Assembly (NCBI GenBank): GCA_964396395.1
Contig: CAYNFC010000007.1
Span: 299 to 64,298, forward strand
Origin: an uncultured Gammaproteobacteria bacterium
GTDB taxonomy: Bacteria > Patescibacteriota > Microgenomatia > UBA1406 > GWC2-37-13
DNA length: 64,000 bases
Direction of reading: 5' to 3'
Shown: positions 2,213 to 61,992 of the stretch, piece by piece
How the letters are laid out: the number at the start of each line of letters is the position of its first letter
Numbering within the stretch: the first letter of the stretch is position 1
Made by a program: the position numbers and the translations under genes
Notes under the pieces: model-generated
Seen by the model: the letters and a program-made list of their open reading frames with translations, nothing else
Told to the model about the DNA's origin: nothing
The model's database searches: none

Positions 2213-3139
2213 ATGGATGGAGTTACCGATGCTCCCTTTCGTTATATTACCGATGTTTATGGAAAACCTGACATTATTTATACGGAGTTTATTTCTGTTA
2301 AAGGCTTAATACTTGGCAAACCAGCCATCAATCGCATGCTCCTTAAACACAAAACCGATACGTTTACTGTAGCTCAATTTTTTGGGACGGAGCCGGAATA
2401 TTTTTATCAGGCGGCACTAGTCGCCCTGGAAAAAGGATTTGACGGAGTTGATATTAATATGGGTTGTCCGGATAGAAGCGTCTTTAATCGGGGAGGAGGA
2501 GCAGGATTAATTTTACAACCAAAACTTGCTAAAGAAATTATTTTATCGGTCAAAAAGGCCGTCAAAGAAGGAATAAAAAAATTTAAAATAAAAAAAGATA
2601 TTACAGTTTCGGTCAAAACCAGAACCGGTTATAGGGAACATAAGACAAAAGAATGGATAAACAATTTGTTGGAGGCAGAGCCGGACGTTATTTGTATTCA
2701 TGCCCGGACTTTTGCCCAGAAATATTCGGGCCTAGCTGATTGGAGCCAAATAGGAATTTCAGCTGAAATAGCCAAAAAAACCAAGACAAAAATATTTGGC
2801 AATGGAGATATAAAAAGTCGATCTGCAGCATTGGATAAAATTAAAGAATATGATCTGGCTGGAGTTTTGATTGGTCGAGCGGCATTAGGGAATCCTTGGA
2901 TATTCAAAGGAGTAATTCCATCAACTGTTGAGAGATTCAAAGTATTATTGGAGCACTGCAAAAAATTTACAGAATTTTTTCCGTCAGCTGACCTAAGCAT
3001 TATGAGAAAACATTTGGCCTGGTATGTAAAGGATTTTTATCATGCCGCTGAAGTTAGGAACGAACTGATGCAGGTAAATAGTGTTGATGACGTGAAAAAA
3101 ATATTATCGAAAATTATCTCCTCCACGGTCGTAGCATAG
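2213..3139 (+). CDS. tRNA-dihydrouridine synthase
   Basis: 308-aa ORF starting MDGVTDAPFR, with GVDINMGCP. These are classic Dus motifs. The upstream in-frame GLAP is also Dus-like, but no ATG/GTG/TTG start is available there, so the N-terminus is uncertain. Confidence 0.85.
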   Translation: MDGVTDAPFRYITDVYGKPDIIYTEFISVKGLILGKPAINRMLLKHKTDTFTVAQFFGTEPEYFYQAALVALEKGFDGVDINMGCPDRSVFNRGGGAGLILQPKLAKEIILSVKKAVKEGIKKFKIKKDITVSVKTRTGYREHKTKEWINNLLEAEPDVICIHARTFAQKYSGLADWSQIGISAEIAKKTKTKIFGNGDIKSRSAALDKIKEYDLAGVLIGRAALGNPWIFKGVIPSTVERFKVLLEHCKKFTEFFPSADLSIMRKHLAWYVKDFYHAAEVRNELMQVNSVDDVKKILSKIISSTVVA

Positions 3140-3142
3140 ATA
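3115..3142. repeat. 28-bp palindromic site, copy 1
   Basis: TATCTCCTCCA-CGGTCG-TAGCATAGATA. Overlaps the dus stop codon. Forms a doublet with copy 2, 58 bp start to start. Confidence 0.7.
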
Positions 3143-3172
3143 GAGTTTGAAGTTTTTTAACAATAAAAACTC

Positions 3173-3200
3173 TATTTTAAAAACGGCCGTCGCATAGATA
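3173..3200. repeat. 28-bp palindromic site, copy 2
   Basis: TATTTTAAAAA-CGGCCG-TCGCATAGATA. The left arm is degenerate. The right arm is shared with copy 1. Confidence 0.6.
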
Positions 3201-3384: not shown

Positions 3385-3954
3385 CTATTTTCTCTTAAGG
3401 TAATATAAAATGTGGAGAAAGGGGATAATTCCTAAATTTTTATCTTTAAATTGACGGCTTTCTTCAATTTTAAATCCATGTTTTTTAAATATTTCTCTCC
3501 ACTCTTTATCTATTTTGTATGAGTTCCAAAAAGCATCCAACCTTAAATTTCCGATCGCATCTGAAATTACAGTAAATATTTTATTTACAGGACTTGTATA
3601 TGAAGTCTCAATTATTACTAACTCATCTGCTACCCGAGCGGCTTCTTTAAATACTAACTCAGGACTTGTTGTATGGTGTAAAACCATTAGTAATAATGCC
3701 GTATCAAACGATTTATTTTTAAAAGGAAGAATCTTACCATCATAGATAGTTGTTTTAACCAGTCTTAGTCCATGAAAATTACCAACGTCAACAGGTGTAA
3801 TTTTTTTACCCTTTTTTTGTAATAAATAAGCTACGTCACCAGTACCAGAACCAATATCAATAATTTTTTTGGACCCTTTTAAATAAGAGAAAATTCTTTG
3901 AACTACTATTTCCGATCGGCCTCTCACCAATTTTTGAATTATTGAACTTAACAT
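3385..3954 (-). CDS. class I SAM-dependent methyltransferase
   Basis: 189-aa ORF with motif I IIDIGSGTGDV and the post-I acidic residue (PVD). The LLLMVLHH region is typical of Methyltransf_11/25-like proteins. Confidence 0.75.
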   Translation of the reverse strand: MLSSIIQKLVRGRSEIVVQRIFSYLKGSKKIIDIGSGTGDVAYLLQKKGKKITPVDVGNFHGLRLVKTTIYDGKILPFKNKSFDTALLLMVLHHTTSPELVFKEAARVADELVIIETSYTSPVNKIFTVISDAIGNLRLDAFWNSYKIDKEWREIFKKHGFKIEESRQFKDKNLGIIPFLHILYYLKRK

Positions 3955-4026
3955 AAAGTAATAACATTATATTAAGATATTTATACCCTAGAATACAGGA
4001 AAAAAGTGATAAAGATATGAATAAAA

Positions 4027-4098
4027 TTATTTTTCCCACTTCGAAATGGAAAGGTCAACGCGATGACAGGGGACTTGGGGAGTGTTAGGATTATTTTT
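4027..4098 (-). pseudogene. internally deleted MGMT gene relic (copy B)
   Basis: Minus-strand reading gives KNNPNTPQVPCHRV-DLSISKWEK*. This is the MGMT active-site segment fused directly to the C-terminal tail. The deletion junction is the same as in relic A. Confidence 0.75.
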
Positions 4099-4742
4099 TA
4101 TAAAATAAAACGGCATGGGATTTTAATTTTCAATCGACCAATTCTCAGAAAAACATTATTTACAATATTATTTAACTTTTCTCTATCAACTATTTTTTTA
4201 AGTTGCTGTAAGTCAGATCTTCTTTGCTCAATATTTTTTCTTACGAAAAATCCCCAAGTTTTTAACCCAAAGCTATAAATACAATATAGAGTTTCTGGAG
4301 AAACGGTTTTTAAACTTATGCCTTCAAACGACGAGTCAATAACCCCACCGGAGGGAAAAGAAAATTTAATACTAGGGTATAATTCAACCAGAATCTCCTT
4401 TTTTAAGCCACCAAAATTAGAAGTCATTATTTCCAAATTTTTTCCATTTTTTTCAAATCGAAAATATTTTGACAGAGCTATTTTTTTAAGACGATTGTAA
4501 AAAGGAAATTTTTCATCAATAAAGGTATATTGTTCATAACCAAGTTTTAATAAATTATTTCTTATAATATCAAAATTTTTAATATCACAAATAATATCAA
4601 TATCTTTAATTTTTCTTTGATAACTATTTTTTATAAACGATAATAAAGACACTGAACCAATACAAAAATATTGCCGATCAGACGGAATTGAATCGATAAA
4701 ATCTCTTAAAGTAGAGGCAACCCATTTATTATCTAAATTCAT
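4098..4742 (-). CDS. hypothetical protein, possible minimal nucleotidyltransferase fold
   Basis: 214-aa ORF. IGSVSLL...KIKDIDIICD loosely fits the hG[GS]-x(n)-DhD pol-beta NTase signature. The stop codon lies inside MGMT relic B. Confidence 0.4.
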   Translation of the reverse strand: MNLDNKWVASTLRDFIDSIPSDRQYFCIGSVSLLSFIKNSYQRKIKDIDIICDIKNFDIIRNNLLKLGYEQYTFIDEKFPFYNRLKKIALSKYFRFEKNGKNLEIMTSNFGGLKKEILVELYPSIKFSFPSGGVIDSSFEGISLKTVSPETLYCIYSFGLKTWGFFVRKNIEQRRSDLQQLKKIVDREKLNNIVNNVFLRIGRLKIKIPCRFIL

Positions 4743-4789
4743 AAATCAATTTTACACCAACAAACAACACCCGGTGTTCAAAGCTATAT

Positions 4790-4817
4790 TATCTTGTAGA
4801 CGGCCGTCTTTAAGATA
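4790..4817. repeat. 28-bp palindromic site, copy 3
   Basis: TATCTTGTAGA-CGGCCG-TCTTTAAGATA. Lies 48 bp upstream of the 4742 start codon (minus strand). Confidence 0.8.
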
Positions 4818-4834
4818 ATAATTTAACAATAAAA

Positions 4835-4912
4835 TTATTTTTCCCACTTTGAAATAAAAAGATCGACCCGGTGGCAGGGGACGATGGGAGCATCAGGATT
4901 ATTTTTCAAAAA
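4835..4912 (-). pseudogene. internally deleted MGMT gene relic (copy A)
   Basis: Minus-strand reading gives FLKNNPDAPIVPCHRV-DLFISKWEK*. Nucleotide identity to 6412-6717 and 8292-8525 is clear across ...ggcaggggacgat.ggagcatcaggattattttt. Confidence 0.8.
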
Positions 4913-6086
4913 GAAAATACAGAAGCTTATCTACTATGTTTCTGATTGCAGCTGCTCCTTTGACTTCAGGTGGAGGACCTAATGAAGAATTTTGTGGAGG
5001 TAGGCCTTGGTTTTGCTGTTCTGGTGGAGGTCCTTGATCTGGGGGCGGACCCTGACGTTCTTGAGAATTTTCCAGAAGACGGAATTCTTCATTCCTTCTT
5101 TCCTGAGGATTAGGTGGTTGTCCCTCACCTTGGCATTTATCAGGATTATCTCGGCAGAATGTGTCGCGGGACTTTGGTGAGTTTGTAAAATCTTGTGGTT
5201 GACCACCACTAAATTGTTCTTTACACTTCTCGGGATTTTCTTTGCATAGTTTTTCCATTTCTTCTCGCTTTATTCCTTCTGGTGGTTTGCCTCGTTCTTC
5301 TTCTTTCCCTTCTGGGCCCGGTCCGAATTTTTGACATTCTGACGGATTTTTTTCACAGTATTCTTTACATGATGATTCACTATTGCATCCACCTGGTCCT
5401 TTAAATCCTTCTTGTGGCGGCCCACCACGGCGTTCTTGGCCTTCAGGCGGTTTGAATTTAGAACATTCATTAAAATTATCAGGACTGGAACAAAATGCTT
5501 TACAGGATTCTTCGGAATTACAACCACCAGGACCTCTTTTTTCTTCGCCTCCTTTCAATCCAGTTTGTTTGGCAAACTCTGAGCATTTTTGCCGATTCCC
5601 TTCCTGTTCACAGATTGATTTGCAGGTTTGGGGTGAATCACACCCTAGAATTTCTTTTGCTTTCGTAAGAATCTCCTGATTCTTTGGGCTCAATATTTGC
5701 TCTTTCACCAACCCTGTTTTTTTTGCAAAGTTGGTACATTTCTCAAAATTTTCCTCTTTTTCGCATATGTTTTTACATTCGGTTTCCGAACTACAACCCA
5801 GCTCTGTTTTTGCATGTGTTAATATCTCATCGGTTTTTCGTTCCTCATAAAATCCTTTTTGTTTGGCATACTGAATACAGGCGTCGCGATGAGTTTCGCC
5901 TTCACAATAGTTATGGCAGCTTGTATAGTCGGTACAGTTTCCGAGGCTTGTAATCGGATAGGTGATGCCATACTTTTTAGCAGCATCTTCATTTGTTGCC
6001 TGACCTTTTACTAATGGAGGCGGATAGAAAAAGAAAGCGGTAAATAATAAAAAAAGAAATAATTGACGGATTAATATGTGTTTCAT
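4899..6086 (-). CDS. secreted Cys-rich repeat protein with Pro/Gly/Gln/Glu-rich tail
   Basis: 395-aa ORF with an N-terminal hydrophobic signal (LFLFLLFTAFFF). It has at least five copies of a GC-x3-(S/E)C-x3-C-x6-8-C-x2-(F/Y)AK-type module. The C-terminus is low-complexity, and the last codons run into MGMT relic A. Confidence 0.7.
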   Translation of the reverse strand: MKHILIRQLFLFLLFTAFFFYPPPLVKGQATNEDAAKKYGITYPITSLGNCTDYTSCHNYCEGETHRDACIQYAKQKGFYEERKTDEILTHAKTELGCSSETECKNICEKEENFEKCTNFAKKTGLVKEQILSPKNQEILTKAKEILGCDSPQTCKSICEQEGNRQKCSEFAKQTGLKGGEEKRGPGGCNSEESCKAFCSSPDNFNECSKFKPPEGQERRGGPPQEGFKGPGGCNSESSCKEYCEKNPSECQKFGPGPEGKEEERGKPPEGIKREEMEKLCKENPEKCKEQFSGGQPQDFTNSPKSRDTFCRDNPDKCQGEGQPPNPQERRNEEFRLLENSQERQGPPPDQGPPPEQQNQGLPPQNSSLGPPPEVKGAAAIRNIVDKLLYFLFEK

Positions 6087-6424
6087 TTTAGATTGTCAAA
6101 TGGATTGGTATTTTTGGAAAACGGGTTTTGATACTGGGTTTTTTCGCTAAACGGATTTTCATATTTTGTCTCCATCGGAACATTCATTTTGTTTTCAACC
6201 TGAGTGGTTGGTGTTGGAGAATTTGTAAAAATAAATAACCCAACTACAATAAAAATAAGAAGTACAAATACTTCAATAACAAAAACTAGTTTTAAACGAC
6301 TGGGTTTTATTGGCTGAGTGATTGGTTGGGCAACGTCATCCACCATAGTACCACTATTACATAAATAAACGAAGTTGTCAATTGTCAAAATTTGTTTTTC
6401 TTTATCTTTAATTATTTTTTCCAC
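6083..6424 (-). CDS. single-pass membrane protein
   Basis: 113-aa ORF with one TM segment (LKLVFVIEVFVLLIFIVVGLFIF). It overlaps the upstream MGMT gene by 13 nt and the downstream gene by 4 nt (ATGA), suggesting translational coupling. Confidence 0.55.
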   Translation of the reverse strand: MEKIIKDKEKQILTIDNFVYLCNSGTMVDDVAQPITQPIKPSRLKLVFVIEVFVLLIFIVVGLFIFTNSPTPTTQVENKMNVPMETKYENPFSEKTQYQNPFSKNTNPFDNLK

Positions 6425-6717
6425 CCAGAAATGAAAAGATTAACTTTGTTATTTTTAAAACACACACCTTCTTTTAAAAGCATTTTTTTCTTTTGAGTAA
6501 TTCCTCCAATTCCCGAGTATCCGGTTAGTTTTCCGTCACTAGCGACGACTCGATAGCAGGGGACAATCGGGGCATCAGGATTATTTTTCATGAATGTTCC
6601 GACGGCCCGGGATGCTTTTGGTTTCCCGGCCAGCCCTGCCAGTTGACCATATGTGGCGACTTTACCTTCTGGAATAGAACGGCAGATTTTATAAACTTTT
6701 TCTTTAAATAAAGACAT
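6412..6717 (-). CDS. MGMT-family (methylated-DNA--protein-cysteine methyltransferase DNA-binding domain) protein, PCYR variant
   Basis: 101-aa ORF. VYKICRSIPEGKVATYGQLA...SRAVGTFMKNNPDAPIVPCYRVV is the MGMT C-terminal domain. The canonical PCHR reads PCYR here. Confidence 0.85.
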   Translation of the reverse strand: MSLFKEKVYKICRSIPEGKVATYGQLAGLAGKPKASRAVGTFMKNNPDAPIVPCYRVVASDGKLTGYSGIGGITQKKKMLLKEGVCFKNNKVNLFISGWKK

Positions 6718-6720
6718 ACA

Positions 6721-7227
6721 TTAATTAACCCTGTTTGTAAGTTTTGAGCGAAGTTCTCTGAAATAAAAAATGGCCTGACATACTTCTTTTGCCATTTCGT
6801 TTTCAGGATCAGTTTTGAGAGCTTTATTTACAAATAATAACGCCTGATTTTCATTTCCTTCTTTATTTTCAAGAACAGCCAAATCACATAATATTTGAAT
6901 ATCTTCAGGAAAAAGATGGTGAGCTTTTTTCATTAATTCCCTTCCAATATTTGGACTACCATTCATAAAATGAGTCCAACCTAAAAGATATAAAATTCTT
7001 GGATTGTTGGGAAGAAGTTTATCAGCTTTTGATAAAAAACTAATTGATTCAATAAACCGTTCTTGTTTACATAAGGCTTCTCCTAGAAGATAATAAGCCT
7101 CAGGATTTTTTTGATTAAATTTTATTGCTTGACGAAGTATCTTTTCTGCCTCTTCCCATCTTGCCAGTTCAAGACATTTATCCGCTTGTTTTATTAACTT
7201 TTTTACATTAGTTTTATTGTTTTTCAT
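6721..7227 (-). CDS. tetratricopeptide repeat protein
   Basis: 168-aa ORF with repeated WEEAEKILRQAIKFNQKNPEAYYLLGEAL-type 34-residue TPR units. Confidence 0.8.
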   Translation of the reverse strand: MKNNKTNVKKLIKQADKCLELARWEEAEKILRQAIKFNQKNPEAYYLLGEALCKQERFIESISFLSKADKLLPNNPRILYLLGWTHFMNGSPNIGRELMKKAHHLFPEDIQILCDLAVLENKEGNENQALLFVNKALKTDPENEMAKEVCQAIFYFRELRSKLTNRVN

Positions 7228-7235
7228 GACAAAAC

Positions 7236-8270
7236 TTACTTTTTATTTAAAATATAATATGATCCTTTACTTTTTCCCTTCATCATAATTAAGTCATGTT
7301 TTATCAGTTTTTTAAAATCAAGATGTCTAGTTGCTCGTGCTCTTTTAACTAATTTTGAATACTGACGATCGGTAATAAATCCTTTTTGTTTTATAGATTC
7401 CAAAATCTTCAAATGGTATGGTTGTAGTTGGGTTTTGGGACTTATTGCTTGTTGAGGAAGCAACTTTTCAACTCGTAGCAATTCATCGATAATTCCATCA
7501 GTAAAATATTCAAGCCATAAAGTAAAATCGACTGTTGGATATATATCATAATAATTTCCCCTGACTCCAACCATTTCAAAATATTTAGTGACGTTTTTGT
7601 TATAGTAATTTTCAAAGCTAAACAGATTAAAAGTATCTAATCCCATTTCGGCCAGAAGTATTTTGGTTGCCAGTCGGGTTGTTCTTCCGTTTCCATCCAT
7701 AAAAGGATGAATGATAACCATTTGCTTATGAAAAATACCAGCCAATATTAATGGGTCAATAATATTTTTATTTGATTTTACAAAATTAACAAGATCTGTA
7801 ATGAGTTTTTGGACATCTTTATGATCAGGCGGCCAATAAATGGTTTTTTGCGATTGCGGATCATTGACAAAGACAGCGTCTTGACGAAATTGTCCGGACT
7901 GAAATGTTGGGAGAAGTTTATGGGTTACTTTTTCTTGAATTGTTAAGATAAAATCAAGATTAAAAATAATAATTTCTTTTTCAAGCTTTATATTAATTTC
8001 TTTTAATATTTCGTTGTAGTTTAATACTTCCTGCTCACTCTCACGGATATTTTGAGGCCTTGTTTTTAGTATCTCTTTAACATTAGTTAGCGGGAGCGGA
8101 TTGCCTTCAATGCTGGTTGAGGCATAAGTAGAGATTTCCTCTGCATTTCTTTGCAATTCTGCTAAAACCACATGGGGAAAACGGTGTAAATTAAGATCGT
8201 TGACAAGTTCGTTGATTCGCTTAATATTTGCAAGTAATTTATTCGTAATAGTGTATTTTGGTTTAAACAT
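7236..8270 (-). CDS. Fic family protein with C-terminal winged-helix region
   Basis: 344-aa ORF containing the Fic motif HPFMDGNGRTTR (HxFx[DE]GNGRxxR). Confidence 0.9.
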   Translation of the reverse strand: MFKPKYTITNKLLANIKRINELVNDLNLHRFPHVVLAELQRNAEEISTYASTSIEGNPLPLTNVKEILKTRPQNIRESEQEVLNYNEILKEINIKLEKEIIIFNLDFILTIQEKVTHKLLPTFQSGQFRQDAVFVNDPQSQKTIYWPPDHKDVQKLITDLVNFVKSNKNIIDPLILAGIFHKQMVIIHPFMDGNGRTTRLATKILLAEMGLDTFNLFSFENYYNKNVTKYFEMVGVRGNYYDIYPTVDFTLWLEYFTDGIIDELLRVEKLLPQQAISPKTQLQPYHLKILESIKQKGFITDRQYSKLVKRARATRHLDFKKLIKHDLIMMKGKSKGSYYILNKK

Positions 8271-19767: not shown

Positions 19768-20025
19768 TTATCCGTGCTTCCTTTTTAAAATCATAAGAAA
19801 AAAAGCTCCTACAAAAAGAATAGAATTTGTTACCCAAATAAAAGGATCGCCTTTTAATAATCCATAAATCACCCATGATATTCCGTTTAACATTCCAATA
19901 ATAATTCCCATCCAAGAAAGATCACGTGTTTTTTTAGTTTTGAAAGAAGCCCAGACCTGAGGAAAAAATATCAAAGCGGCAAAAATTGATCCCAAATATC
20001 CAAATAATAATTCTAAGTTTTTCAT
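19768..20025 (-). CDS. SemiSWEET/PQ-loop family transporter
   Basis: The ORF extends to 20064. From MKNLELLFGY there are three TM helices with the PQ motif (FFPQVWASFKTKKT), about 86 aa in all. This is typical of a bacterial SemiSWEET. Confidence 0.75.
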   Translation of the reverse strand: MKNLELLFGYLGSIFAALIFFPQVWASFKTKKTRDLSWMGIIIGMLNGISWVIYGLLKGDPFIWVTNSILFVGAFFLMILKRKHG

Positions 20026-20093
20026 TAATGTATATATTATATCTATAAAAATATTTTTTATCATTTCACAAACTTATCTAACTATAAATAACC

Positions 20094-20121
20094 TATCTTG
20101 TCGACGATCGTCTATAAGATA
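20094..20121. repeat. 28-bp palindromic site, copy 4
   Basis: TATCTTGTCGA-CGATCG-TCTATAAGATA. Confidence 0.8.
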
Positions 20122-20278
20122 TATCTATCGATAAAAATATACTACTACAACAATCTAAATCTTCACTTTTGTAGGTTATAAGCGGTGGACATACTTAGTA
20201 TATAAAGTTATAAAGTCTATAAGGTTCTTTAAATAATAAAAAAATACAAAAATATAGCAATTAATTATGATAAACATT

Positions 20279-20306
20279 TATCTTGTGGACGATCGTACAT
20301 AAGATA
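20279..20306. repeat. 28-bp palindromic site, copy 5
   Basis: TATCTTGTGGA-CGATCG-TACATAAGATA. It ends 18 nt before the 20325 ATG, and its right edge runs into an ATAATT -10-like box. Confidence 0.8.
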
Positions 20307-20324
20307 ATAATTCAAATAAGATAT

Positions 20325-20912
20325 ATGGAAGAAAAGGAAATTAAGTTAAAACGGGGACAGTTATATTGGCATATCTTGGAGATCATAGGTCTAACTTTGA
20401 TATCGGCTGGCAATCCGCTTCGCCCAGTTATTCCTTTAGCCATAAAAGAAATTATTAAAACTCTTAAAGAAGTCAAAAATCTAAACGTTGAAGAAGAAAA
20501 AATTAAAAGAAGTTTAAAAAGCTTAGAGAGAAAAGAAATTATTGATCTAGAAGAAAAAGGTAATGAAGTTTTTGTCAGATTAAAAGATAAGAATAATTTA
20601 ACAGTAATAAAATATTCAACGAAAGCACTTTTAGATTTCAAAAGGAAAGAAAAAAATTGGAACGGCAAATGGTTTTTAGTTTTCTTTGATGTTCCAGAAA
20701 TTCAAAGGAATAAAAGAAATTATTTAAGAAAATTTCTCGTAGATATAGGATTTCATCAATATCAAAAAAGTATTTACATCTTTCCCTATGAATGCGAAAA
20801 GGAAATAGCACTGATTAAGAAAATTGTCGAGGGGGCAAAATATATGAAATATATAATTGCAGAAAAAATAGAGGACGAAAAAACAGTAAAATCTTTCTTC
20901 AAATTAGGATAA
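20325..20912 (+). CDS. PaaX-family-like regulator with Cas2/VapD-fold-like C-terminal half
   Basis: The ORF track starts at 20283, but an ATG at 20325 (MEEKEIKLKRG) is preferred. The N-terminal half is winged-helix-like. The C-terminal KWFLVFFDVPE...R..LRKFL.DIGFHQYQKSIYIFP matches the PaaX_C/Cas2-like beta-alpha-beta-beta-alpha-beta signature. Confidence 0.55.
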   Translation: MEEKEIKLKRGQLYWHILEIIGLTLISAGNPLRPVIPLAIKEIIKTLKEVKNLNVEEEKIKRSLKSLERKEIIDLEEKGNEVFVRLKDKNNLTVIKYSTKALLDFKRKEKNWNGKWFLVFFDVPEIQRNKRNYLRKFLVDIGFHQYQKSIYIFPYECEKEIALIKKIVEGAKYMKYIIAEKIEDEKTVKSFFKLG

Positions 20913-20954
20913 TAATATTATCTTCAATTTTTTTTTATGTTATTAGTAATAATG

Positions 20955-20982
20955 TATCTTGTAGACGACCGTCTTGAAGATA
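20955..20982. repeat. 28-bp palindromic site, copy 6
   Basis: TATCTTGTAGA-CGACCG-TCTTGAAGATA. Lies 43 nt downstream of the 20912 stop. Confidence 0.8.
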
Positions 20983-21018
20983 AAGAATAAAAACTTGATT
21001 TTTTAAAAAAGTGATTTT

Positions 21019-21050
21019 AGTCTAGATTCCCGCCTTCGCGGGAATAACAC
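21019..21050. repeat. GC-rich REP-like hairpin element
   Basis: agtctagATTCCCGCcttcGCGGGAATaacac, between convergent genes. Same family as 31687, 37113, 49283 and 49336. Confidence 0.8.
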
Positions 21051-21078
21051 TTGTGATTCTAAGTAGCGATCCCTTTAT

Positions 21079-21702
21079 TTATAAAAAAATAAGGGCGAAG
21101 ATTCCTGAAGATAACCCGAGTAAGATTCCGCCTATAACGTCGGTTGGCCAATGTTCTCCGAGAGAAATCCGGGAAACGAGCATTAATCCGTTAACGATGA
21201 ATAGTAAAGAATTAAAGAAAATTTTATTTGAATTACTAATCTTCATTTTGTTGATAAGATAAGAAATTATTACTGAAACGAAAATTACTCTCAAGCTATG
21301 GCCGGATGGATAAGAAGATCCCGGTTGAACATATGATGAAGGAAAAAGAAAATCCAAATTATATCTAAAAAATAAGAATGGTGGTCCGGGATGGTTCATC
21401 AATGACTTACCGATTAATTCAATAATATGTGCCCCGACCAAAGGAATAAAGATCAAAAAAGATAGTATTTTTCTTCTGAAAAGAGCAATAAAAAATAAAA
21501 AACCAGCTAATATTTCAAAACTTCCAACGAGGCTAAAAAAAGACAAGAAAGAATCATATTTTATTGAAATATGATTTTGTAATCTAACCGTTGTATTAAA
21601 GTCAAAACTATTTAATAGTTCCTTTTTAACAACGAAAGTAAAAAAGGCAAAAACAAAAAAGAAAAATAAACTTATCAAAATCAAAATGATTTTTTTTCTC
21701 AT
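21079..21702 (-). CDS. PAP2-family phosphatase (membrane)
   Basis: 207-aa polytopic ORF with PAP2 motifs SYPSGHS and SRISLGEHWPTDVIGG. Confidence 0.85.
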   Translation of the reverse strand: MRKKIILILISLFFFFVFAFFTFVVKKELLNSFDFNTTVRLQNHISIKYDSFLSFFSLVGSFEILAGFLFFIALFRRKILSFLIFIPLVGAHIIELIGKSLMNHPGPPFLFFRYNLDFLFPSSYVQPGSSYPSGHSLRVIFVSVIISYLINKMKISNSNKIFFNSLLFIVNGLMLVSRISLGEHWPTDVIGGILLGLSSGIFALIFL

Positions 21703-31658: not shown

Positions 31659-31686
31659 TTCTTCACGATCGGTCACATCGTAGTTT

Positions 31687-31717
31687 GTCATCCCCGTGAA
31701 GACGGGGATCAAGTCTA
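31687..31717. repeat. GC-rich REP-like hairpin element
   Basis: GTCATCCCCGTgaagACGGGGATCaagtcta, 29 nt downstream of the purM stop. Confidence 0.8.
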
Positions 31718-31760
31718 AAATTACATTTTTAAATAATTATTTTAACAATAAATAAATATT

Positions 31761-31788
31761 TATCTTATGGACGGCCGTCTTGAAGATA
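31761..31788. repeat. 28-bp palindromic site, copy 7
   Basis: TATCTTATGGA-CGGCCG-TCTTGAAGATA, 17 nt upstream of a TTGCAT box. Confidence 0.8.
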
Positions 31789-37087: not shown

Positions 37088-37112
37088 ACATAAATTTATA
37101 AATAGTAATTTT

Positions 37113-37144
37113 AATCTGGATTCCCGCCTACGCGGGAATGACAC
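37113..37144. repeat. GC-rich REP-like hairpin element inside the pur operon
   Basis: aatctggATTCCCGCctacGCGGGAATgacac. On the minus strand it supplies the last purB codons (V-I-P-A) and the stop. Confidence 0.8.
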
Positions 37145-38528
37145 GAATAATTTTAACTAATTTTTTTGCCCTTTCTGGTGCGTCACCAATATGGGTTTCA
37201 ACTTCCATTAATTTTTCTAACTGATTTTTATTCAAATATTTACTAACTAATTTGTCTTCCAATAATAGTTTCATCATGGGATTTTCTTTGCCTTTTTGAA
37301 TATCAGCCCAAGCAATCATTGAATTAATCCTTAATACTTCATGCATTTCCTGGCGGTTAGCCCCGTTTTTAACTGCTTCCAAAATTATAGACTCGGAGGC
37401 GGCAAATGATGCATATTGTTTTAAATTAAAACTAATTCTTTCTTTGTTTATAATTAAACTACTAATAATTTTTTCCGCGGTTATTAAAATTTGATCGGTT
37501 GTTAAAAACGCTTCAGCAACAATAATTCTTTTATTGGCTGAATCGTCAAGAGTTCTTTCTAGATAAGAAAGAGAAGCATTTTCACCAGCAACTTGCGGAA
37601 GAGTGGCAACGAAGCGGGCGAGAGAACAGATATTCTCACTGCTGATCGGATTTTTTTTGAAAGGCATTGCCGAACTGCCCACTTGTTTTTTTCCAAAAGA
37701 CTCAGACCATTCGCCATAAAGAGGAGATTGTAGAATCCGCAAATCTCCGGCAAATTTAGAAAGAGCAGATGTAACCATTACTAAACTATTTAAAACAATA
37801 AAATCATATAAACGGGGATAGACTTGACCACTGATTAGAGAAGCATCAATTCCTAAACTTTTCATCACTTTAGTTTCCAGTTGATCAACAGATACTGACT
37901 TATCTTTTAATAATTCTTTATAACTTGCCGCAGTTCCAACCGCTCCTTTCATTCCCTTTCCCTTAATAGTTTTTTTAACGAACTGAATAAATTCGTAGGC
38001 GGTCAATAAATCCTGAGCATAAAAAGCTAAACGATAGCCGACGGTTGTTGGTTCGGCCGGTTGCAAATGAGTGTAGCCTAAGCAAGGAAAATCTGAGTAC
38101 TCATCAATTTTATCAGCCAGTAAATTTAGAATAACAACAACTTTTTTTTCAATAATTTCCAGCGCTTCCTGAACCCTGACCATATCGGCATTATCAACGA
38201 TGTCCATACTAGTTGCTCCCAGATGAATTTTTCCGCCACCGACCTTTGCTTTTTCGGCAAATTCTTTGATTGCCGCCACGACATCATGTTTGGTATCCTT
38301 TTCCAATTCAAAAATTTTTTCAATATCGATATCTTTTTCATTTTTTTTCAAATCTTCTAATTCTTCTTTGCTAACCAAACCAGCTTGATACTGAGCTTCA
38401 GCTATTGCAACCCAAATTTTTCGCCAAAGTTCGTATTTATGTTTTTCGCTGAAAATTTTTCTCATTTCGGGAGAGCCGTAGCGCCAGGTAAGAGGAGATA
38501 GATAGGTGGAGAAATCAAAGTTTTTCAT
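37128..38528 (-). CDS. purB: adenylosuccinate lyase
   Basis: 466-aa [13 protein letters not shown], the [10 protein letters not shown]-type motif [11 protein letters not shown], and the signature [11 protein letters not shown]. Confidence 0.9.
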
Positions 38529-47950: not shown

Positions 47951-48058
47951 GTGTGTATTCAATCCACCTTCGTTCAAGTTCGGACATCCACCATGTCTTA
48001 CTTCGAGCCTTTTCAGAACTATTCGTTCACGGCTCGAAAAGCGTCATTTAGTGGATTT

Positions 48059-48105
48059 ACTCTCACTAATCTTTTCCGCCAGCTGGCGGATTAGAAAGTG
48101 AGAGT
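48059..48105 (-). other. long perfect hairpin in the pur leader
   Basis: ACTCTCACTaatcttttCCGCCAGCTGGCGGattagaaAGTGAGAGT, about 47 nt, immediately downstream (minus sense) of the leader terminator. Confidence 0.55.
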
Positions 48106-48130
48106 ACAAAAAAACCCGCTCTGGGCGGGT
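48106..48130 (-). terminator. intrinsic terminator in the pur operon leader
   Basis: Minus-strand ACCCGCCcagaGCGGGT followed by TTTTTTTG. It lies about 35-60 nt downstream of the predicted transcription start. Confidence 0.6.
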
Positions 48131-48172
48131 AGAATTTTTAACTGAGAAAAAAGCATTTCTCATTAGAGAAAA

Positions 48173-48201
48173 ATTATACAAAATCAAAAACTCTTTTGCA
48201 A
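48173..48201 (-). promoter_or_regulatory. sigma-70-type promoter of the pur operon
   Basis: On the minus strand, TTGCAA (48201-48196), a 17-nt spacer, then TATAAT (48178-48173). Confidence 0.65.
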
Positions 48202-48219
48202 GGTGAATTTTAAATAATT

Positions 48220-48247
48220 TATCTATACGACGGTCGTCTCTAAGATA
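48220..48247. repeat. 28-bp palindromic site, copy 8
   Basis: TATCTATACGA-CGGTCG-TCTCTAAGATA, 18 nt upstream of the pur promoter -35. Confidence 0.8.
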
Positions 48248-48277
48248 GATTTTAGATTATTTAAAATTATCAAATTA

Positions 48278-48305
48278 TATCTATACTACGGCCGTGAGAA
48301 AGATA
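48278..48305. repeat. 28-bp palindromic site, copy 9
   Basis: TATCTATACTA-CGGCCG-TGAGAAAGATA, 58 bp start to start from copy 8. Confidence 0.7.
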
Positions 48306-48400
48306 ATATTGATATAAATATTGTAATGGAGTAATTTATATATGTTTTAATCTATTGATAGATTGAAACAAAGATTTTTATTTTTTAATCAATTAATTTT

Positions 48401-49240
48401 ATGAAAAAACAAATTACCACATCCGGGCAATTTATTAAATTACCTGATGGGATAGTGCATTATCAATTATCCGGCCCTAAAAATAAGAGAACTGTTGTAT
48501 TAATTCATGGTTTTTCGGTACCGTATTATAATTGGGACCATACATTTGATTTTTTAGTTGAGTCGGGACTTCGAGTACTAAGATATGATGTTTATGGACG
48601 AGGTTTTTCTGACAAGCCAATAGTTCAGTACACTAAGGATTTTTATTACAATCAACTCTCGAATTTATTATCAGCCTTGAAGATTAATTCTCAAATCGAT
48701 TTAATCGGTTTTTCCATGGGAGGGATCGTCTCTGCGATTTTTGCTAACCGACAACCAAAAATAATAAGACGCATTTGTCTTATTAGCCCGGCCGGCATGC
48801 CAATGGCAGTGCCGATTGCGTTAAATATAATAAAACTACCAAGAGTTGGAGAGATCATAATGAAATTGTTTGGAAATCAGATATTAATTTCAGGAGTGAG
48901 AATGGATCTATCTGAACCAGAAAAATATCCAGAATATTTTGATAATTATTCTTCCCAACTACAATATCCAGGTTTTAAACATTCTTTATTATCAACTTTA
49001 AGAAGTGGAATGTTATTTGATTCAGAGAATGAATATGCAAAACTTGGAAAGAAAAATATAAAAACAATATTAATATGGGGTAAGAAGGATAAGGTAGTTC
49101 CTTATTCACTACATAGTAAATTTATTTTGAATGTTCCAAAAATAAAATTTTATCCAATTAACAAAGCCGGGCATGCATCTCATTATGAATGTCCCAAGAT
49201 AGTAAATCCAATATTATTAAATTTTTTAACATCATATTAA
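48401..49240 (+). CDS. alpha/beta hydrolase
   Basis: 279-aa ORF. HGFS oxyanion region, nucleophile elbow GFSMGG, and C-terminal AGHASH. Confidence 0.85.
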   Translation: MKKQITTSGQFIKLPDGIVHYQLSGPKNKRTVVLIHGFSVPYYNWDHTFDFLVESGLRVLRYDVYGRGFSDKPIVQYTKDFYYNQLSNLLSALKINSQIDLIGFSMGGIVSAIFANRQPKIIRRICLISPAGMPMAVPIALNIIKLPRVGEIIMKLFGNQILISGVRMDLSEPEKYPEYFDNYSSQLQYPGFKHSLLSTLRSGMLFDSENEYAKLGKKNIKTILIWGKKDKVVPYSLHSKFILNVPKIKFYPINKAGHASHYECPKIVNPILLNFLTSY

Positions 49241-49282
49241 TCAAAAGAATTAATCGTAGTTTTACTTCTGGACAATATTCTT

Positions 49283-49313
49283 GTCATCCCCGTGAAGACG
49301 GGGATCCAGTCTA
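49283..49313. repeat. GC-rich REP-like hairpin element
   Basis: GTCATCCCCGTgaagACGGGGATCcagtcta. Inverted relative to the neighbouring copy at 49336. Confidence 0.8.
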
Positions 49314-49335
49314 TCAATTCAATTATGGTAATTTT

Positions 49336-49365
49336 AGTCTGGATTCCCGCCTACGCGGGAATGAC
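49336..49365. repeat. GC-rich REP-like hairpin element
   Basis: agtctggATTCCCGCctacGCGGGAATgac. Together with 49283 it forms a composite inverted repeat between convergent genes. Confidence 0.8.
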
Positions 49366-49416
49366 GGCTTTCGATATCTATTAACTCTTCTTGCAGGATA
49401 GTTTGTTTAATCAATG

Positions 49417-54727: not shown

Positions 54728-54755
54728 TATCTTATCGACGGCCGTCCACAAGATA
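54728..54755. repeat. 28-bp palindromic site, copy 10
   Basis: TATCTTATCGA-CGGCCG-TCCACAAGATA. It differs from copy 11 at only 2 of 28 positions. Confidence 0.85.
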
Positions 54756-54809: not shown

Positions 54810-55064
54810 ATGACAGTTAATAGTATTATCAAGAATAAGCCTTATTTGGCGTGGTATGTAAAAGATCCGGAAAATCTTTCGGAGGAGTCTGTTTTGGAAC
54901 ATGTATTAAACTACGGAAATTGGGATGATGTCCAACAATTCATTAGAATTAAAGGTAAGGATAAAACCGCCATATTATTTAAGAAAACCCTGACAAACAA
55001 AAGAACGAATTATCAACCGGCAGTTCAGTCTTATTTTTTCCGTTATTTTAATCATCGCGCATGA
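54810..55064 (+). CDS. small protein paired with an AbiEii-like nucleotidyltransferase (putative antitoxin partner)
   Basis: The ATG at 54810 is preferred over the TTG at 54795. ...WYVKDPENLSEESVLEHVLNYGNWDDVQQFI resembles the small partner proteins found upstream of AbiEii-type NTases. Its stop overlaps the next start (ATGA). Confidence 0.5.
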   Translation: MTVNSIIKNKPYLAWYVKDPENLSEESVLEHVLNYGNWDDVQQFIRIKGKDKTAILFKKTLTNKRTNYQPAVQSYFFRYFNHRA

Positions 55065-55669
55065 ATAAACAAATATTTAATAACGATCAGGAACAACTAC
55101 TTCCTTTTATAAAATTATTTTTATCGAATTTTTATCTTGTAGGAGGTACGGCAATAGCCCTTCATTTAGGACATAGAAGATCTATTGATTTTGATTTATT
55201 TACAGATAATATATTTGATCCTATGAAGATACGTAATAAAATAATGCAAGATAAAACTATCAATCATACTTTTTCTCAGGGAACTGGTGAATTAACAGTC
55301 CTTATTGATAAAGTTAAAATAACTTTTTTCCATTATCCATTTATTATCCAAAGAAATATTATGTTTGAACAAACATTAAAACTTCCTGACTTAATTACAC
55401 TTGGCGCCATGAAAGCATTTGCCCTTGGAAGACGGGCTAAATGGAAAGATTATATTGATTTATATTTTATTTTTCAAAAGCATTCATTTCAAGAATTAAT
55501 TGTTAAAACAAATAGTATCTTTAAAGCCGAATTTAATGAAAAATTATTTCGTACCCAGCTTAGTTATTTTGATGATATTGATTACTCCGAGCAAATTGAA
55601 TACATGGATGGGTTTGAAAAAAACGATGAAAATATAAAGCAATTTCTTGAAAAAATAAGTCTTTCCTAA
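55061..55669 (+). CDS. nucleotidyltransferase AbiEii/AbiGii toxin family protein
   Basis: 202-aa ORF. FYLVGGTAIALHLGHRRSIDFDLFT is the family hallmark (GGTAL..HR.S.DlDfF). Confidence 0.75.
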   Translation: MNKQIFNNDQEQLLPFIKLFLSNFYLVGGTAIALHLGHRRSIDFDLFTDNIFDPMKIRNKIMQDKTINHTFSQGTGELTVLIDKVKITFFHYPFIIQRNIMFEQTLKLPDLITLGAMKAFALGRRAKWKDYIDLYFIFQKHSFQELIVKTNSIFKAEFNEKLFRTQLSYFDDIDYSEQIEYMDGFEKNDENIKQFLEKISLS

Positions 55670-55681
55670 TTAATTGTTGTT

Positions 55682-55709
55682 TATCTTATCGACGACCGTC
55701 TACAAGATA
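55682..55709. repeat. 28-bp palindromic site, copy 11
   Basis: TATCTTATCGA-CGACCG-TCTACAAGATA, 13 nt after the 55669 stop. Confidence 0.85.
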
Positions 55710-60288: not shown

Positions 60289-61992
60289 ATGTTTAAACAA
60301 GACATTGGCTTCTATTTAGGTCATGAAAAAACGGACGGTTTTTCCGGTTTTGTCAGTGAAAATAATTTATTTTTGGCGGTTGAGATTGAGGAAGGAATGA
60401 CCCCTGATAAAGGCAGGGAGCTAACGGCCTTCATAAAAGAAAAAATCAGTTCGATTATGATTGAGAATCTACAACAATTTGATTCCTTTATCTCCGGCTT
60501 AATCAAAGAAAAAAATTTACCGTCCGGTTTTTCTCTATCAGGCGGTTATTTAAAAGAAAATATATTTTATTTGAAAACAGTCAATCATGGTCAAGTATAT
60601 ATCCGACGGAAAGATAAACTAGCTCTCCTTATCAAAGGTAACGAATCTGCTTCAGGATATATTGAAGAAAGCGATATTTTTATTTTTACTTTCAATAGAT
60701 TTATGATTTTACTCGGAGAGGAAGAAGGACTAAATAAAAAATTTGATCACCGGCCGGTCTCGGAAATCATTGATGAAATTACTCCGGAACTGCTTACAAA
60801 AGACGATCAAGGAACGGCGGCTTTGTTTTTACAATTAAAAAAAATCGGAGAAATCGAAAAACCGGTTAGCGATTTTTTTGAACAACCGGAAAAAAAATCC
60901 CGAAAAATCCTGACATTTATAACGGTTTTTGTTCTTGGAATAATTCTTTTTTGGAGTGTTGGTCTGGGTTATAAAAGACGGACTCAGGAGATCGGCCGTG
61001 AGAAAATTAAATTGGCTAAAGAATTAATTGGCCAGAAATTGGATAAAGCCGAAGAAGTAGCTTTTTTAAATATGTCGAGCGCTTTGAGTTTAATTGCGGA
61101 TAGCAAAACGGAAGCAAATAAATTTAAACAAGAGCTCCGCCTTCGTCCTAACTCAGTCGGGACTATGGCGAGACAAGTAGAAGAATTAGAAAAATTGATT
61201 TCCGATACTGAGAATAAAATTCTCAAAAAAGAGGAAAAAAAATACAGCGAGTTTTTTGATTTAACGGTTGATGACAAAGATGCCAAAGGTGATAAACTCT
61301 ATCTTAACGACGGCCGTCTCTTAGTTAGTGATAAAAGTAGAGGAGTATTATATGAACTTTCACTGGAAAAAAAGTCTTTAGATAAAGATCAGTTCAGTGC
61401 TGTAAAAAGATCAAGCTTGATTACTTCATATGATGATAAAAAATATTTTTATGTTTCGGGAGAGGGTATCTACCGGGTGGCGGATGGAAAAGCGGATAAA
61501 GTAATTAAAAATAATAAAGACTGGGGAGAAATTATTGATATGGTGGTTTTTAACGGTAATATTTATCTATTAGATCGGGGTAAAGATGAGATTTGGAAGT
61601 ATGTGAGTACGGAAGATGGGTTTGGAAGCGGGATTTCCTACTTTCAATCCGGGCAATCAATCGACCTGTCCGCCATTAATTCCTTAACGATTGACGGTTC
61701 GGTTTATCTGGCCGGCGATTCGGTCATGGTTAAATATACTTCAGGCCTCCGCGACGGATTTAAGGTTAATTTACCGGACGATAATGTCAATATGACAAAA
61801 GTTTTTACCGGCAAAGATCTGGAAAAAGTCTATCTTTGGGATAAGGGTGAAGGGGCAGTTTATGTTTTGGGAAAAAATGGAAATTATCAGGAACAGGTAA
61901 ATTCAAAAATTTTATCAACAGGAACAGATTTAGTTGTCTATAAAGATTCTATTTACGTGTTGGGAGGAAGTAAGATATTTAAGATCGATTAA
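60289..61992 (+). CDS. hypothetical protein with central TM helix and C-terminal beta-propeller-like repeats
   Basis: 567-aa ORF with a TM helix at ILTFITVFVLGIILFWSV. The C-terminal half has repeated GxxY(V/L)xD..xxxI(W/Y)K-like strands. Confidence 0.45.
   Translation: MFKQDIGFYLGHEKTDGFSGFVSENNLFLAVEIEEGMTPDKGRELTAFIKEKISSIMIENLQQFDSFISGLIKEKNLPSGFSLSGGYLKENIFYLKTVNHGQVYIRRKDKLALLIKGNESASGYIEESDIFIFTFNRFMILLGEEEGLNKKFDHRPVSEIIDEITPELLTKDDQGTAALFLQLKKIGEIEKPVSDFFEQPEKKSRKILTFITVFVLGIILFWSVGLGYKRRTQEIGREKIKLAKELIGQKLDKAEEVAFLNMSSALSLIADSKTEANKFKQELRLRPNSVGTMARQVEELEKLISDTENKILKKEEKKYSEFFDLTVDDKDAKGDKLYLNDGRLLVSDKSRGVLYELSLEKKSLDKDQFSAVKRSSLITSYDDKKYFYVSGEGIYRVADGKADKVIKNNKDWGEIIDMVVFNGNIYLLDRGKDEIWKYVSTEDGFGSGISYFQSGQSIDLSAINSLTIDGSVYLAGDSVMVKYTSGLRDGFKVNLPDDNVNMTKVFTGKDLEKVYLWDKGEGAVYVLGKNGNYQEQVNSKILSTGTDLVVYKDSIYVLGGSKIFKID

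Follow-up and report, generated by a model that had tools for sequence, protein, structure and literature searches.

This study concerns a gene for a small PaaX-like protein, here called mini-PaaX, together with the large palindromes that lie on both sides of it in a 64,000-nucleotide stretch of DNA, hereafter the window (GenBank assembly GCA_964396395.1, contig CAYNFC010000007.1, positions 299 to 64,298). The window has a G+C content of 33.6%, and its proteins match those of Candidatus Roizmanbacteria, which belongs to the Microgenomates in the candidate phyla radiation (CPR). To our knowledge, almost nothing is known about gene control in the CPR (Patescibacteria), whose genomes are tiny and contain few recognisable regulators. 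Other loci are cited by our own numbers (L001 and so on).

Gene, palindromes and protein at the locus

The mini-PaaX gene occupies positions 20325-20912 of the plus strand and encodes 195 amino acids; the ATG at 20325 is the conserved start, and the N-termini of the orthologs read MKEKEIKLKRGQ. Its neighbours are TIM, PQ-loop transporter, PAP2 and glycolysis genes, and no paa genes were found among the neighbouring genes examined in the window. The three palindrome copies that the original prediction had placed around this open reading frame (ORF) were confirmed; no strand is assigned to them or to the other copies described below. Copy 4, the distal upstream palindrome (TATCTTGTCGACGATCGTCTATAAGATA, 20094-20121), is 203 nt upstream of the ATG, between the mini-PaaX gene and the divergently oriented PQ-loop/SWEET gene (19768-20064, minus strand). 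Copy 5, the proximal palindrome (TATCTTGTGGACGATCGTACATAAGATA, 20279-20306), ends 18 nt before the ATG. Copy 6, the downstream palindrome (TATCTTGTAGACGACCGTCTTGAAGATA, 20955-20982), is found about 42-43 nt past the stop at 20912, in the space that separates the mini-PaaX gene from the convergent PAP2 gene (21079-21702, minus strand).

All three copies fit the pattern TATCTT-RTN-SACG-RY-CGTS-NAY-AAGATA, and the consensus of the 28-base palindrome is (T)TATCT-T/A-RTN-S-ACG-RY-CGT-S-NAY-AGATA(A). The strict 28-mer pattern has 5 matches in the window, against 0.00 expected, and the relaxed pattern ATCT-N5-ACG-NN-CGT-N5-AGAT has 12, against 0.11 expected; the density is about one palindrome per 5 kb. 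Three of the 12 sites fall within one given 900-bp stretch around the mini-PaaX ORF (Poisson P = 7e-4). The core octamer ACGRYCGT lies inside the large palindrome in 12 of its 14 occurrences in the window, so that the core does not, as a rule, occur on its own.

Between copies 4 and 5 lies a conserved promoter-type block on the plus strand (20122-20214), which reads TATCTATCG..AATCTAAA..TTTTGTAGGTTATAAGCG (20167-20184) and ends in a -35 hexamer TGGACA (20186-20191), a 17-nt spacer and a -10 hexamer TATAAA (20209-20214). The position of the -35/17/-10 arrangement is kept across 9 orthologs. A sigma-70 scan of the region returned fewer promoter-like matches than shuffled controls, and TATAAA was left unflagged because the hexamer ends in A. 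The claim that copy 5 overlaps the only -10-like box, ATAATT, did not hold: ATAATT (20307-20312) is directly adjacent to copy 5 and not inside it, the right arm of copy 5 itself holds a better overlapping hexamer, GATAAT (20303-20308), and the -35/17/-10 arrangement is also present. No terminators and no terminator-like T tract were found in 19950-21150.

The promoter-type block is not confined to this gene. In many Roizmanbacteria loci a block of about 95 nt, TATCTATCG..AATCTAAA..TTTTGTAGGTTATAAGCG-TTGACA-17-TAnAAn, precedes unrelated small accessory genes; it was seen in at least 14 further places (L015, L023, L045, two in L051, L060, L068, two in L076, L080, L103, L111, L112 and L117), and the genes behind it include NYN, Y1/RAYT-like, four-helix-bundle and toxin-antitoxin (TA) toxin genes, sometimes with a full palindrome just upstream of the block. 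In L117 (2630-3220), a RAYT/IS200-like Y1 transposase gene with the shared block stands beside a palindrome and occupies the place of the window's regulator-gene neighbourhood on the PAP2 side.

The encoded protein matches the Pfam domain PaaX_M (PF20803) over residues 110-185 with E 3e-19 and 69.3 bits (cut-off 24). Scores for Cas2 models are close to their cut-offs (CRISPR_Cas2 in Pfam, 23.7 bits against 23.8; TIGR01573, 25.4 against 24.5), and the PaaX equivalog model TIGR02277 gives 38.9 bits against a cut-off of 264.55. Helix-turn-helix (HTH) matches in Pfam are weak (TrmB, E 0.021), and the Pfam scan of the 195-residue protein gave no match to PaaX_C; the protein ends about 10 residues past the Cas2-like fold. 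The domain assignment of the original prediction was thus right as to a winged helix followed by a Cas2-like half and wrong as to PaaX_C, the domain matched being PaaX_M.

An AlphaFold2 model, with a predicted local distance difference test (pLDDT) score of 86, contains a winged helix and, after a linker helix, a Cas2 fold of beta-alpha-beta-beta-alpha-beta order. The layout along the chain is a weakly hydrophobic N-terminal helix (12-27), the winged helix (40-88, with helices at 40-50 and 57-69 and a beta-hairpin at 73-86), the linker helix (92-109) and the Cas2-like ferredoxin fold (116-179). The best Foldseek match in the PDB is E. coli PaaX (8a39), which aligns over both domains with E 1.9e-6; winged-helix proteins and Cas2 chains come next, and further fold matches include AF1382, PadR/ArsR proteins and several Cas2 chains. 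In a profile comparison, the winged-helix part best matches AspA (E 0.001). Residues W112, W116, D122 and S149 are invariant in 58 sequences, with D122 at the end of beta-1, and the Cas2-type residues D122, Q147 and S149 are retained. The first helix of the Cas2-like domain contains the near-invariant R131 and, directly after it, residue 132, which is considered below.

Conservation of the layout and co-variation of protein and site

A protein search for the Roizmanbacteria family gave 587 matches, of which the top 120 are 65-100% identical. We compared 19 further Roizmanbacteria-type ortholog loci, whose proteins are 66-88% identical to the window protein. With the exception of L004, the upstream site ends 10-31 nt (most 17-20) before the ATG, and the downstream site starts 3-42 nt past the stop; the downstream copy of L203 is degenerate. 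Most of these loci carry an extra site, either 139-197 bp upstream or about 50-70 bp downstream, and the distal upstream site precedes the proximal one by 139-197 bp in L002, L026, L040, L049, L078, L082 and L097. The layout is kept despite differing neighbour genes, the neighbourhood being different in L001, L002 and L004. L004 (70% identical) has, in place of standard sites, a divergent variant in which the GACGATCGTC core is retained. In L002, the two sites nearest the gene (7183-7212 and 7818-7847) have another core, CGTACCTACG, inside the usual TTATCT/AGATAA arms, and the distal site retains the standard core.

The association of motif and protein family was also seen from the side of the motif. 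In a motif scan of a genome collection, which listed at least 111 blocks, the multi-hit genomes among the matches listed are Roizmanbacteria-type metagenome-assembled genomes (MAGs) of about 33% G+C, and clusters of at least three sites per kb occur, among the blocks listed, only at the mini-PaaX gene. A homolog was sought inside the few 8-kb blocks sampled from each assembly, and was present within these in 9 of the 16 multi-hit assemblies. Within this sampling, the result agrees with the co-occurrence that had been anticipated, with the motif confined to Roizmanbacteria-type MAGs among the matches listed. A scan of IMG/VR gave just two chance-level matches in 2.9 million viral contigs and thus no link to phages.

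Some of the genomes concerned carry other names. Several public MAGs titled "uncultured Gammaproteobacteria", "Nanoarchaeota" or "Parcubacteria" hold 33% G+C contigs with proteins 66-88% identical to those of Roizmanbacteria (L008, L012, L015, L019, L026, L029, L030 and others, in CAYWJV01, CAZIYS01, CAYIVY01 and CAZJKY01; L007; L104). Judging from these sequences, the MAGs with non-Roizmanbacteria titles are probably mislabelled or mis-binned.

The family extends well beyond Roizmanbacteria. A search of 1.84 billion representative proteins found at least 2845 clusters at E <= 0.001 and 1013 at E <= 1e-10, and the family members among the matches listed are mostly 175-235 residues long. For example, a Saccharibacteria homolog (27% identical) is flanked by copies of TATCTTTTTCACGATCGTGAAAAAGATA, one of which lies 23 nt past the stop and the other before the ATG; the upstream copy overlaps a TATAAT, which is followed by a GGAGG ribosome-binding site and the ATG. 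Using a 10-sequence alignment as the query, we fetched 80 distant members from metagenomes and compared the flanks of 73 loci. In 61 of these 73 CPR loci, at least 19 of 22 nt are identical between the upstream flank and the downstream flank, compared with a maximum of 18 (typically 15) in control pairs of mismatched loci. The shared element is a 15+15 palindrome of 30 bp that differs from locus to locus (e.g. GTTATATACTCACGATCGTGAGTATATAAC, ATTCTAATTTCGCATATGCGAAATTAGAAT and CGCATTACGATGCTATAGCATCGTAATGCG), and one contig contains two paralogs with two different palindromes. Copies that are alike within a locus and diverge between loci are expected of sites that the product of the flanked gene recognises.

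The placement of the sites is also similar across the wide family. In most loci the upstream site ends 2-40 nt before the ATG; in many members it ends 2-12 nt before it, and the right arm contains a TAnnnT hexamer (24 of 43 counted). Neither a conserved neighbour gene nor a recurrent recombinase was found among 220 neighbours of the 80 loci, which fall into 194 clusters; those inspected are housekeeping genes. Extra palindrome copies are rare outside Roizmanbacteria (5 in 270 kb). In most members from other groups than Roizmanbacteria and Saccharibacteria, the N-terminus includes an uncharged, transmembrane-like segment of 15-31 residues (median 19), which in alignment members P0122-P0262 ends in AP(N/G) and has positive charges on both sides; the window subfamily and the Saccharibacteria homolog are without a hydrophobic segment.

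The relation between residue and base was analysed in 20 Roizmanbacteria-clade orthologs with flanking sites. Residue 132, which is Asn or Asp, is the sole alignment column that separates loci with G-type sites from loci with C-type sites. At N132 loci, position 10 of the half-site is G in 42 of 60 cases and never C; at D132 loci it is C in 27 of 48 cases and never G. The state of residue 132 changed at least six times on the tree. The genome-wide Roizmanbacteria sites are homotypic with respect to the same position (GG 41, CC 21, GC 2), and one MAG contains two paralogs, one with G-type and the other with C-type flanking sites.

Co-variation within the site was examined in 117 Roizmanbacteria sites, in which the arms were fixed by the search pattern. 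The co-varying pairs are 10/19, 9/20 and 14/15, and positions 6-8 and 21-23 neither co-vary nor are complementary. When upstream and downstream copies were compared in the wide family, 96 single pair-breaking changes were counted, and compensatory double changes (9 of 28) equalled the random expectation; the least symmetric positions form the spacer between arm and core. No relevant Rfam family was found in the window at gathering thresholds, or in 19900-21200 and 3950-6800 at E-value thresholds. Since there is no compensatory excess, no T tract and no Rfam match, and since the sites are homotypic, we favour a palindrome that is recognised as duplex DNA by a symmetric dimer over an RNA hairpin or a young mobile repeat. 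The 10/19 co-variation can then be accounted for by two specificities, each with homotypic sites, that are tied to the identity of residue 132 (N or D); the hairpin that was first inferred from this co-variation was rejected on the count of compensatory changes and on the homotypic GG and CC sites.

Taken together, the conserved site-gene-site layout, the locus-specific palindromes and the co-variation of residue 132 with base 10 make it very likely that the mini-PaaX protein is the cognate binder of the palindrome, the first of the two readings that the original prediction had offered. This assessment draws on sequence comparison.

Sites elsewhere in the window and in related genomes

The remaining palindromes of the window are found in various positions relative to genes. 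A divergent pair of copies (3115-3142 and 3173-3200) occupies a convergent gap into which the Dus gene runs with its 3' end, and a site overlapping the end of Dus was also found in L099. The copy at 4790-4817 is 47 nt upstream of a gene of unknown function (4098-4742, minus strand). The copy at 31761-31788 lies between a purM-like gene (end 31658) and a PNP-family gene (start 31875), and an ortholog of it with the same variable bases follows purM in L076. Another pair (48220-48247 and 48278-48305) occupies the divergent region between purF and an alpha/beta-hydrolase gene. The two pairs of divergent flavour, with TATCTAT.. arms (3115-3200 and 48220-48305), are both spaced by exactly 58 bp from start to start. 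A degenerate in-frame copy at 61300-61327 lies inside the ORF 60289-61992, where it encodes YLNDGRLLV, and the L001 ortholog retains this site with two mismatches.

The copies at 54728-54755 and 55682-55709 exactly bracket a two-gene module, in which a small ORF (54810-55064) overlaps the gene for an AbiEii-type nucleotidyltransferase toxin (55061-55669). The former copy lies between an MBL-fold gene (ATG at 54694, minus strand) and the module (54810-55669), and the latter is found 12 nt past the stop of AbiEii. In L102, palindromes bracket an SNase gene in the same way as they do the regulator gene and this module. In addition, in-frame sites were observed inside proteins that, judged by eye, look like AbiEi-type antitoxins (L008, L058 and L089).

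Related genomes provided 129 sites, of which 54 fall within genes; of the approximately 75 intergenic ones, 19 lie between convergent genes. The intragenic sites are not randomly placed. In-frame sites occur at the same position in orthologous genes for ArgRS, NadE, TatD, Nfo (endonuclease IV), MurC/B, QueA and FolC across species, as well as in a GT39-like gene (L012, L016, L019, L023, L037, L039, L043, L044, L057, L059, L060, L064, L067, L070, L072, L083, L085, L086, L088, L108, L110, L111 and L116), and 37 of the 54 share the reading frame in which the site encodes Y-L-x-x-[DG]-R-x-[QI]-D. Among orthologs that had not been picked for the motif, 5 of 8 retain the site with at most two mismatches. 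This conservation in frame and at the same position indicates that selection acts on the DNA itself.

Other sites lie within 150 nt upstream of genes, including those for LexA-like repressors divergent from SNase nucleases and for UvrD/AddA-like helicases, NYN, QueA, PNP and MBL-fold genes, and the purF region; in two genomes the site is 63-64 nt upstream of a LexA-like gene. One of the two readings of the original prediction made the protein a regulator that recognises the palindrome regulon-wide. This wording is perhaps too narrow, because many sites are at 3' ends or in ORFs.

Three known types of element were considered for the palindrome and rejected: a restriction or methylation target, because the core is almost never found without the arms; a dif/Xer site, on copy number and co-variation with the mini-PaaX protein; and a LexA box, on site length and co-variation with the PaaX-like protein.

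Further repeats were observed in the window. A second family consists of G+C-rich hairpins of the form ATTCCC-N8-GGGAAT (e.g. GATTCCCGCCTTCGCGGGAAT and GTCATCCCCGTGAAGACGGGGATC) at the 3' ends of genes, and is found at 21001-21065, 31685-31728, 37095-37159 and 49281-49382; one of these hairpins lies between copy 6 and the PAP2 gene, and another before the palindrome after purM, both in the window and in L076. A repeat of about 90 nt without an Rfam match adjoins the ends of minus-strand genes at 4020-4109, 4828-4917 and 6410-6444, the first two copies being 80% identical. Finally, purF and era are adjacent in L053 (2363-2487, MAG JBAZVQ01) and are separated in the window (47978-49416) by two palindromes, the alpha/beta-hydrolase gene and a hairpin repeat, so that the hydrolase gene and its sites look like an insertion relative to L053.

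Interpretation and comparison with known systems

As a complete mechanism, we consider it probable that mini-PaaX is an autoregulated dimeric repressor or architectural factor. A homodimer would lie along one face of the DNA, with its winged helices reading the outer arms (TTATCT and AGATAA), which have their centres at a distance of about 23 bp on roughly the same face. The Cas2-like dimer would sit over the core SACG-RY-CGTS and help to read it, with R131 and residue 132 contacting the edge of the core, Asn132 pairing with G and Asp132 with C at position 10; two paralogous specificities, G-type and C-type, would explain the homotypic sites. Operators of the protein would flank its own gene: a distal one, a second a short way before the ATG, where it either overlaps a -10-like hexamer or falls within the 5' untranslated region, and a third shortly past the stop. 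The protein would repress its own gene by occlusion or roadblock, possibly with looping between operators, and the promoter between the distal and proximal sites would be controlled by roadblock or looping. Simple autorepression does not explain the downstream copy, which might serve in looping, insulate the gene from read-through or from antisense transcription, or control a promoter that faces inward. In Roizmanbacteria, the palindrome has probably been recruited genome-wide, and the protein probably acts there as a global repressor or architectural factor.

Several observations do not sit easily with this mechanism. The conserved -35/-10 elements are overlapped by neither copy 4 nor copy 5, and therefore the protein could repress that promoter only through looping or as a roadblock. 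No recognisable ligand-binding domain was found in the 195-residue protein, and the transmembrane-like N-terminal helix of most other family members is unusual for a soluble repressor. The numbers of intragenic and convergent sites mean that a simple promoter-operator regulon does not explain the distribution. At two loci, L097 (N132) and L200 (D132), position 10 is mostly A, so the residue-base rule is an exclusion of G versus C and not a full code. In a mutual-information scan of all protein columns against half-site positions in 54 wide-family members, the recognition helix was not enriched, and phylogeny dominated.

A broader idea, which we regard as unlikely, is that the Cas2-fold domain is itself sequence-reading, through R131 and residue 132 at the palindrome core, and that the family, with each gene between two copies of its own repeat of about 30 bp and with a membrane-anchor-like helix in most members, goes beyond ordinary repressors and is a self-recognition system, in which each gene travels with its cognate repeat and marks DNA by it. 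Such a system could take the form of a membrane tether or an uptake-type receptor, or be related to the repeat-recognising ancestor of the CRISPR adaptation module.

The explanations that compete with the mini-PaaX repressor can be taken in decreasing order of probability. The original prediction had itself raised the possibility that the gene is simply another site-flanked cassette. In that case, the gene and its palindromes would form a mobile or recombining unit, the palindromes would be recombination or target-duplication sites (pdif, integron or repeat duplication), and the other bracketed genes would be further cassettes. The tight bracketing by one palindrome in 61 of 73 loci would fit, as would the bracketed AbiEii module (54728/55682) and L102 SNase gene, the differing neighbourhoods of L001, L002 and L004, the hydrolase gene inserted with its sites between purF and Era, and the promoter block common to small accessory genes. 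We nevertheless consider a cassette improbable. The order TIM-SWEET-gene-PAP2 is kept in the window and L082, and L097 has TIM-gene-PAP2-DUF192-PGK, without a SWEET match; no recombinase recurs among the neighbours; the sites are fixed inside orthologous housekeeping ORFs; and viral contigs yield only chance-level matches. Moreover, both copies hold the family consensus across orthologs that are 66-88% identical, which implies that they are under selection and are not decaying duplications.

It is also rather improbable that the palindromes are bound by another protein, such as a LexA-like S24 repressor or another global factor, with the PaaX-like gene as its most controlled target. The suggestion comes from the sites near LexA-like, UvrD/AddA-like and nuclease genes, which resemble an SOS-type set. 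A separate binder does not account for a bracketing palindrome that changes between family members while both copies stay alike, or for a residue of mini-PaaX that tracks base 10 exclusively through its repeated switches. LexA boxes are 14-16 bp long, and a 28-30 bp site with 23-bp arm spacing is closer to the PaaX precedent.

A third alternative makes the family a membrane-anchored, sequence-specific DNA receptor or tether, for which the palindromes would be self-recognition marks, similar to uptake sequences or Noc sites, and not operators. The uncharged N-terminal segment with positive flanks would be its anchor, sites in ORFs, at 3' ends and near genome-maintenance genes would be expected, and tight bracketing would hold gene and sites on one DNA fragment. 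The absence of the segment from the window subfamily and the Saccharibacteria homolog, the placement, in nearly all loci, of the upstream copy on the promoter or immediately behind it, and the rarity of extra copies outside Roizmanbacteria make this quite improbable. Least credible of all is that the palindromes are RNA or single-strand hairpins (terminators, mRNA-end protectors, or REP-like elements with a RAYT) and the Cas2-like protein an RNA binder or RNase: the many sites at gene 3' ends, a regulator mRNA that would carry a palindrome at both ends, the three co-varying pairs, the retained Cas2-type residues and the RAYT-like Y1 gene beside a site in L117 are outweighed by the pair-breaking changes, the non-complementary positions 6-8 and 21-23, the lack of terminators and Rfam matches, arms conserved in sequence and not just in pairing, and a 10/19 co-variation that the specificities at residue 132 account for.

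If the mini-PaaX reading is correct, a candidate protein-site pair is available for a family of at least 2845 sequence clusters, along with a proposed single-residue, single-base recognition rule (Asn132-G, Asp132-C). In Roizmanbacteria, a conserved genome-wide DNA element constrains the coding sequence of housekeeping genes, and the bracketed nuclease and toxin genes suggest a way for reduced genomes to silence dangerous genes. If it is true that the Cas2-like domain reads the palindrome core, this would be a new activity for the Cas2 fold, and would bear on how Cas2-type proteins became tied to palindromic repeats.

The closest known system is PaaX (PDB 8a39, 3l09), a repressor in E. coli and Pseudomonas that responds to phenylacetyl-CoA. 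It is the best structural match over both domains and has the same order of a winged helix and a Cas2-like dimerisation domain with a WDGKW motif. E. coli PaaX binds the split palindrome TGATTC-N27-GAATCA and represses its own promoter (PMC9493321). The protein described here differs in the absence of the PaaX_C ligand-binding domain (195 residues compared with about 305-316), in missing the TIGR02277 cut-off and in having no paa context. The operator is also different, being 6-N27-6 in PaaX and here a 28-30 bp site with a conserved CG-rich core, and the gene here is bracketed on both sides, with the site dispersed genome-wide, including inside ORFs.

With Cas2, the protein shares the ferredoxin-like fold, the signature FD(I/V)P...R...L...GF..QKS(V/I) and the invariant Asp at the end of beta-1. 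However, Cas2 is a stand-alone protein of about 90-110 residues encoded next to cas1 and a CRISPR array, whereas the domain here is fused to a winged helix and has no recurrent partner among the 220 neighbouring genes, and no regularly spaced direct repeats resembling a CRISPR array appear in the repeat listing of the window. We know of no Cas2 for which sequence read-out is an established property, and the domain here appears to contribute such read-out via residue 132.

Parts of the arrangement have precedents in unrelated proteins. In lambda CI with OR/OL, GalR and DeoR, the repressor gene and promoter are enclosed by operators for the same protein; the loop here would be 0.65-0.9 kb, with a single palindrome on each side. 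Noc/NBS, ParB/parS and KorB/OB have tens or more palindromes per genome, many of them in ORFs, with the densest cluster beside their own gene. The scattered conserved palindromes described here, many in ORFs and densest at the mini-PaaX gene, are similar, but the fold is unrelated, there is no ParB/HTH-CTPase domain here, and no spreading or partition partner is evident. AspA, the winged-helix protein that binds the centromere of pNOB8 and the best profile match to the winged-helix part, also binds a palindrome; it is without a Cas2-like domain and works in the context of plasmid partition.

REP/RAYT systems combine a single-copy gene flanked by cognate palindromes, dispersed palindromes, and co-variation of palindrome and protein, all of which are seen here. 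The protein here is, however, not of the HUH/Y1 type (Pfam and NCBIfam give only PaaX_M, Cas2 and winged HTH matches), and while REP/RAYT palindromes are extragenic hairpins, many sites here are intragenic at conserved positions and show no selection for a hairpin. Integron attC and Xer pdif cassettes go with a cognate tyrosine recombinase or integrase and differ in presence between genomes. Here no recombinase recurs among the 220 neighbours, and gene order is kept in three genomes; one hydrolase insertion and several bracketed accessory genes are also seen. In the literature searched, nothing links PaaX or Cas2-like proteins to palindromes of the CPR, Patescibacteria, Saccharibacteria or Roizmanbacteria. 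The protein described here can be summed up as a probable PaaX-type repressor that is reduced to two domains, has its own operators on both sides of its gene and a genome-wide set of sites, and apparently reads DNA with its Cas2-fold domain.

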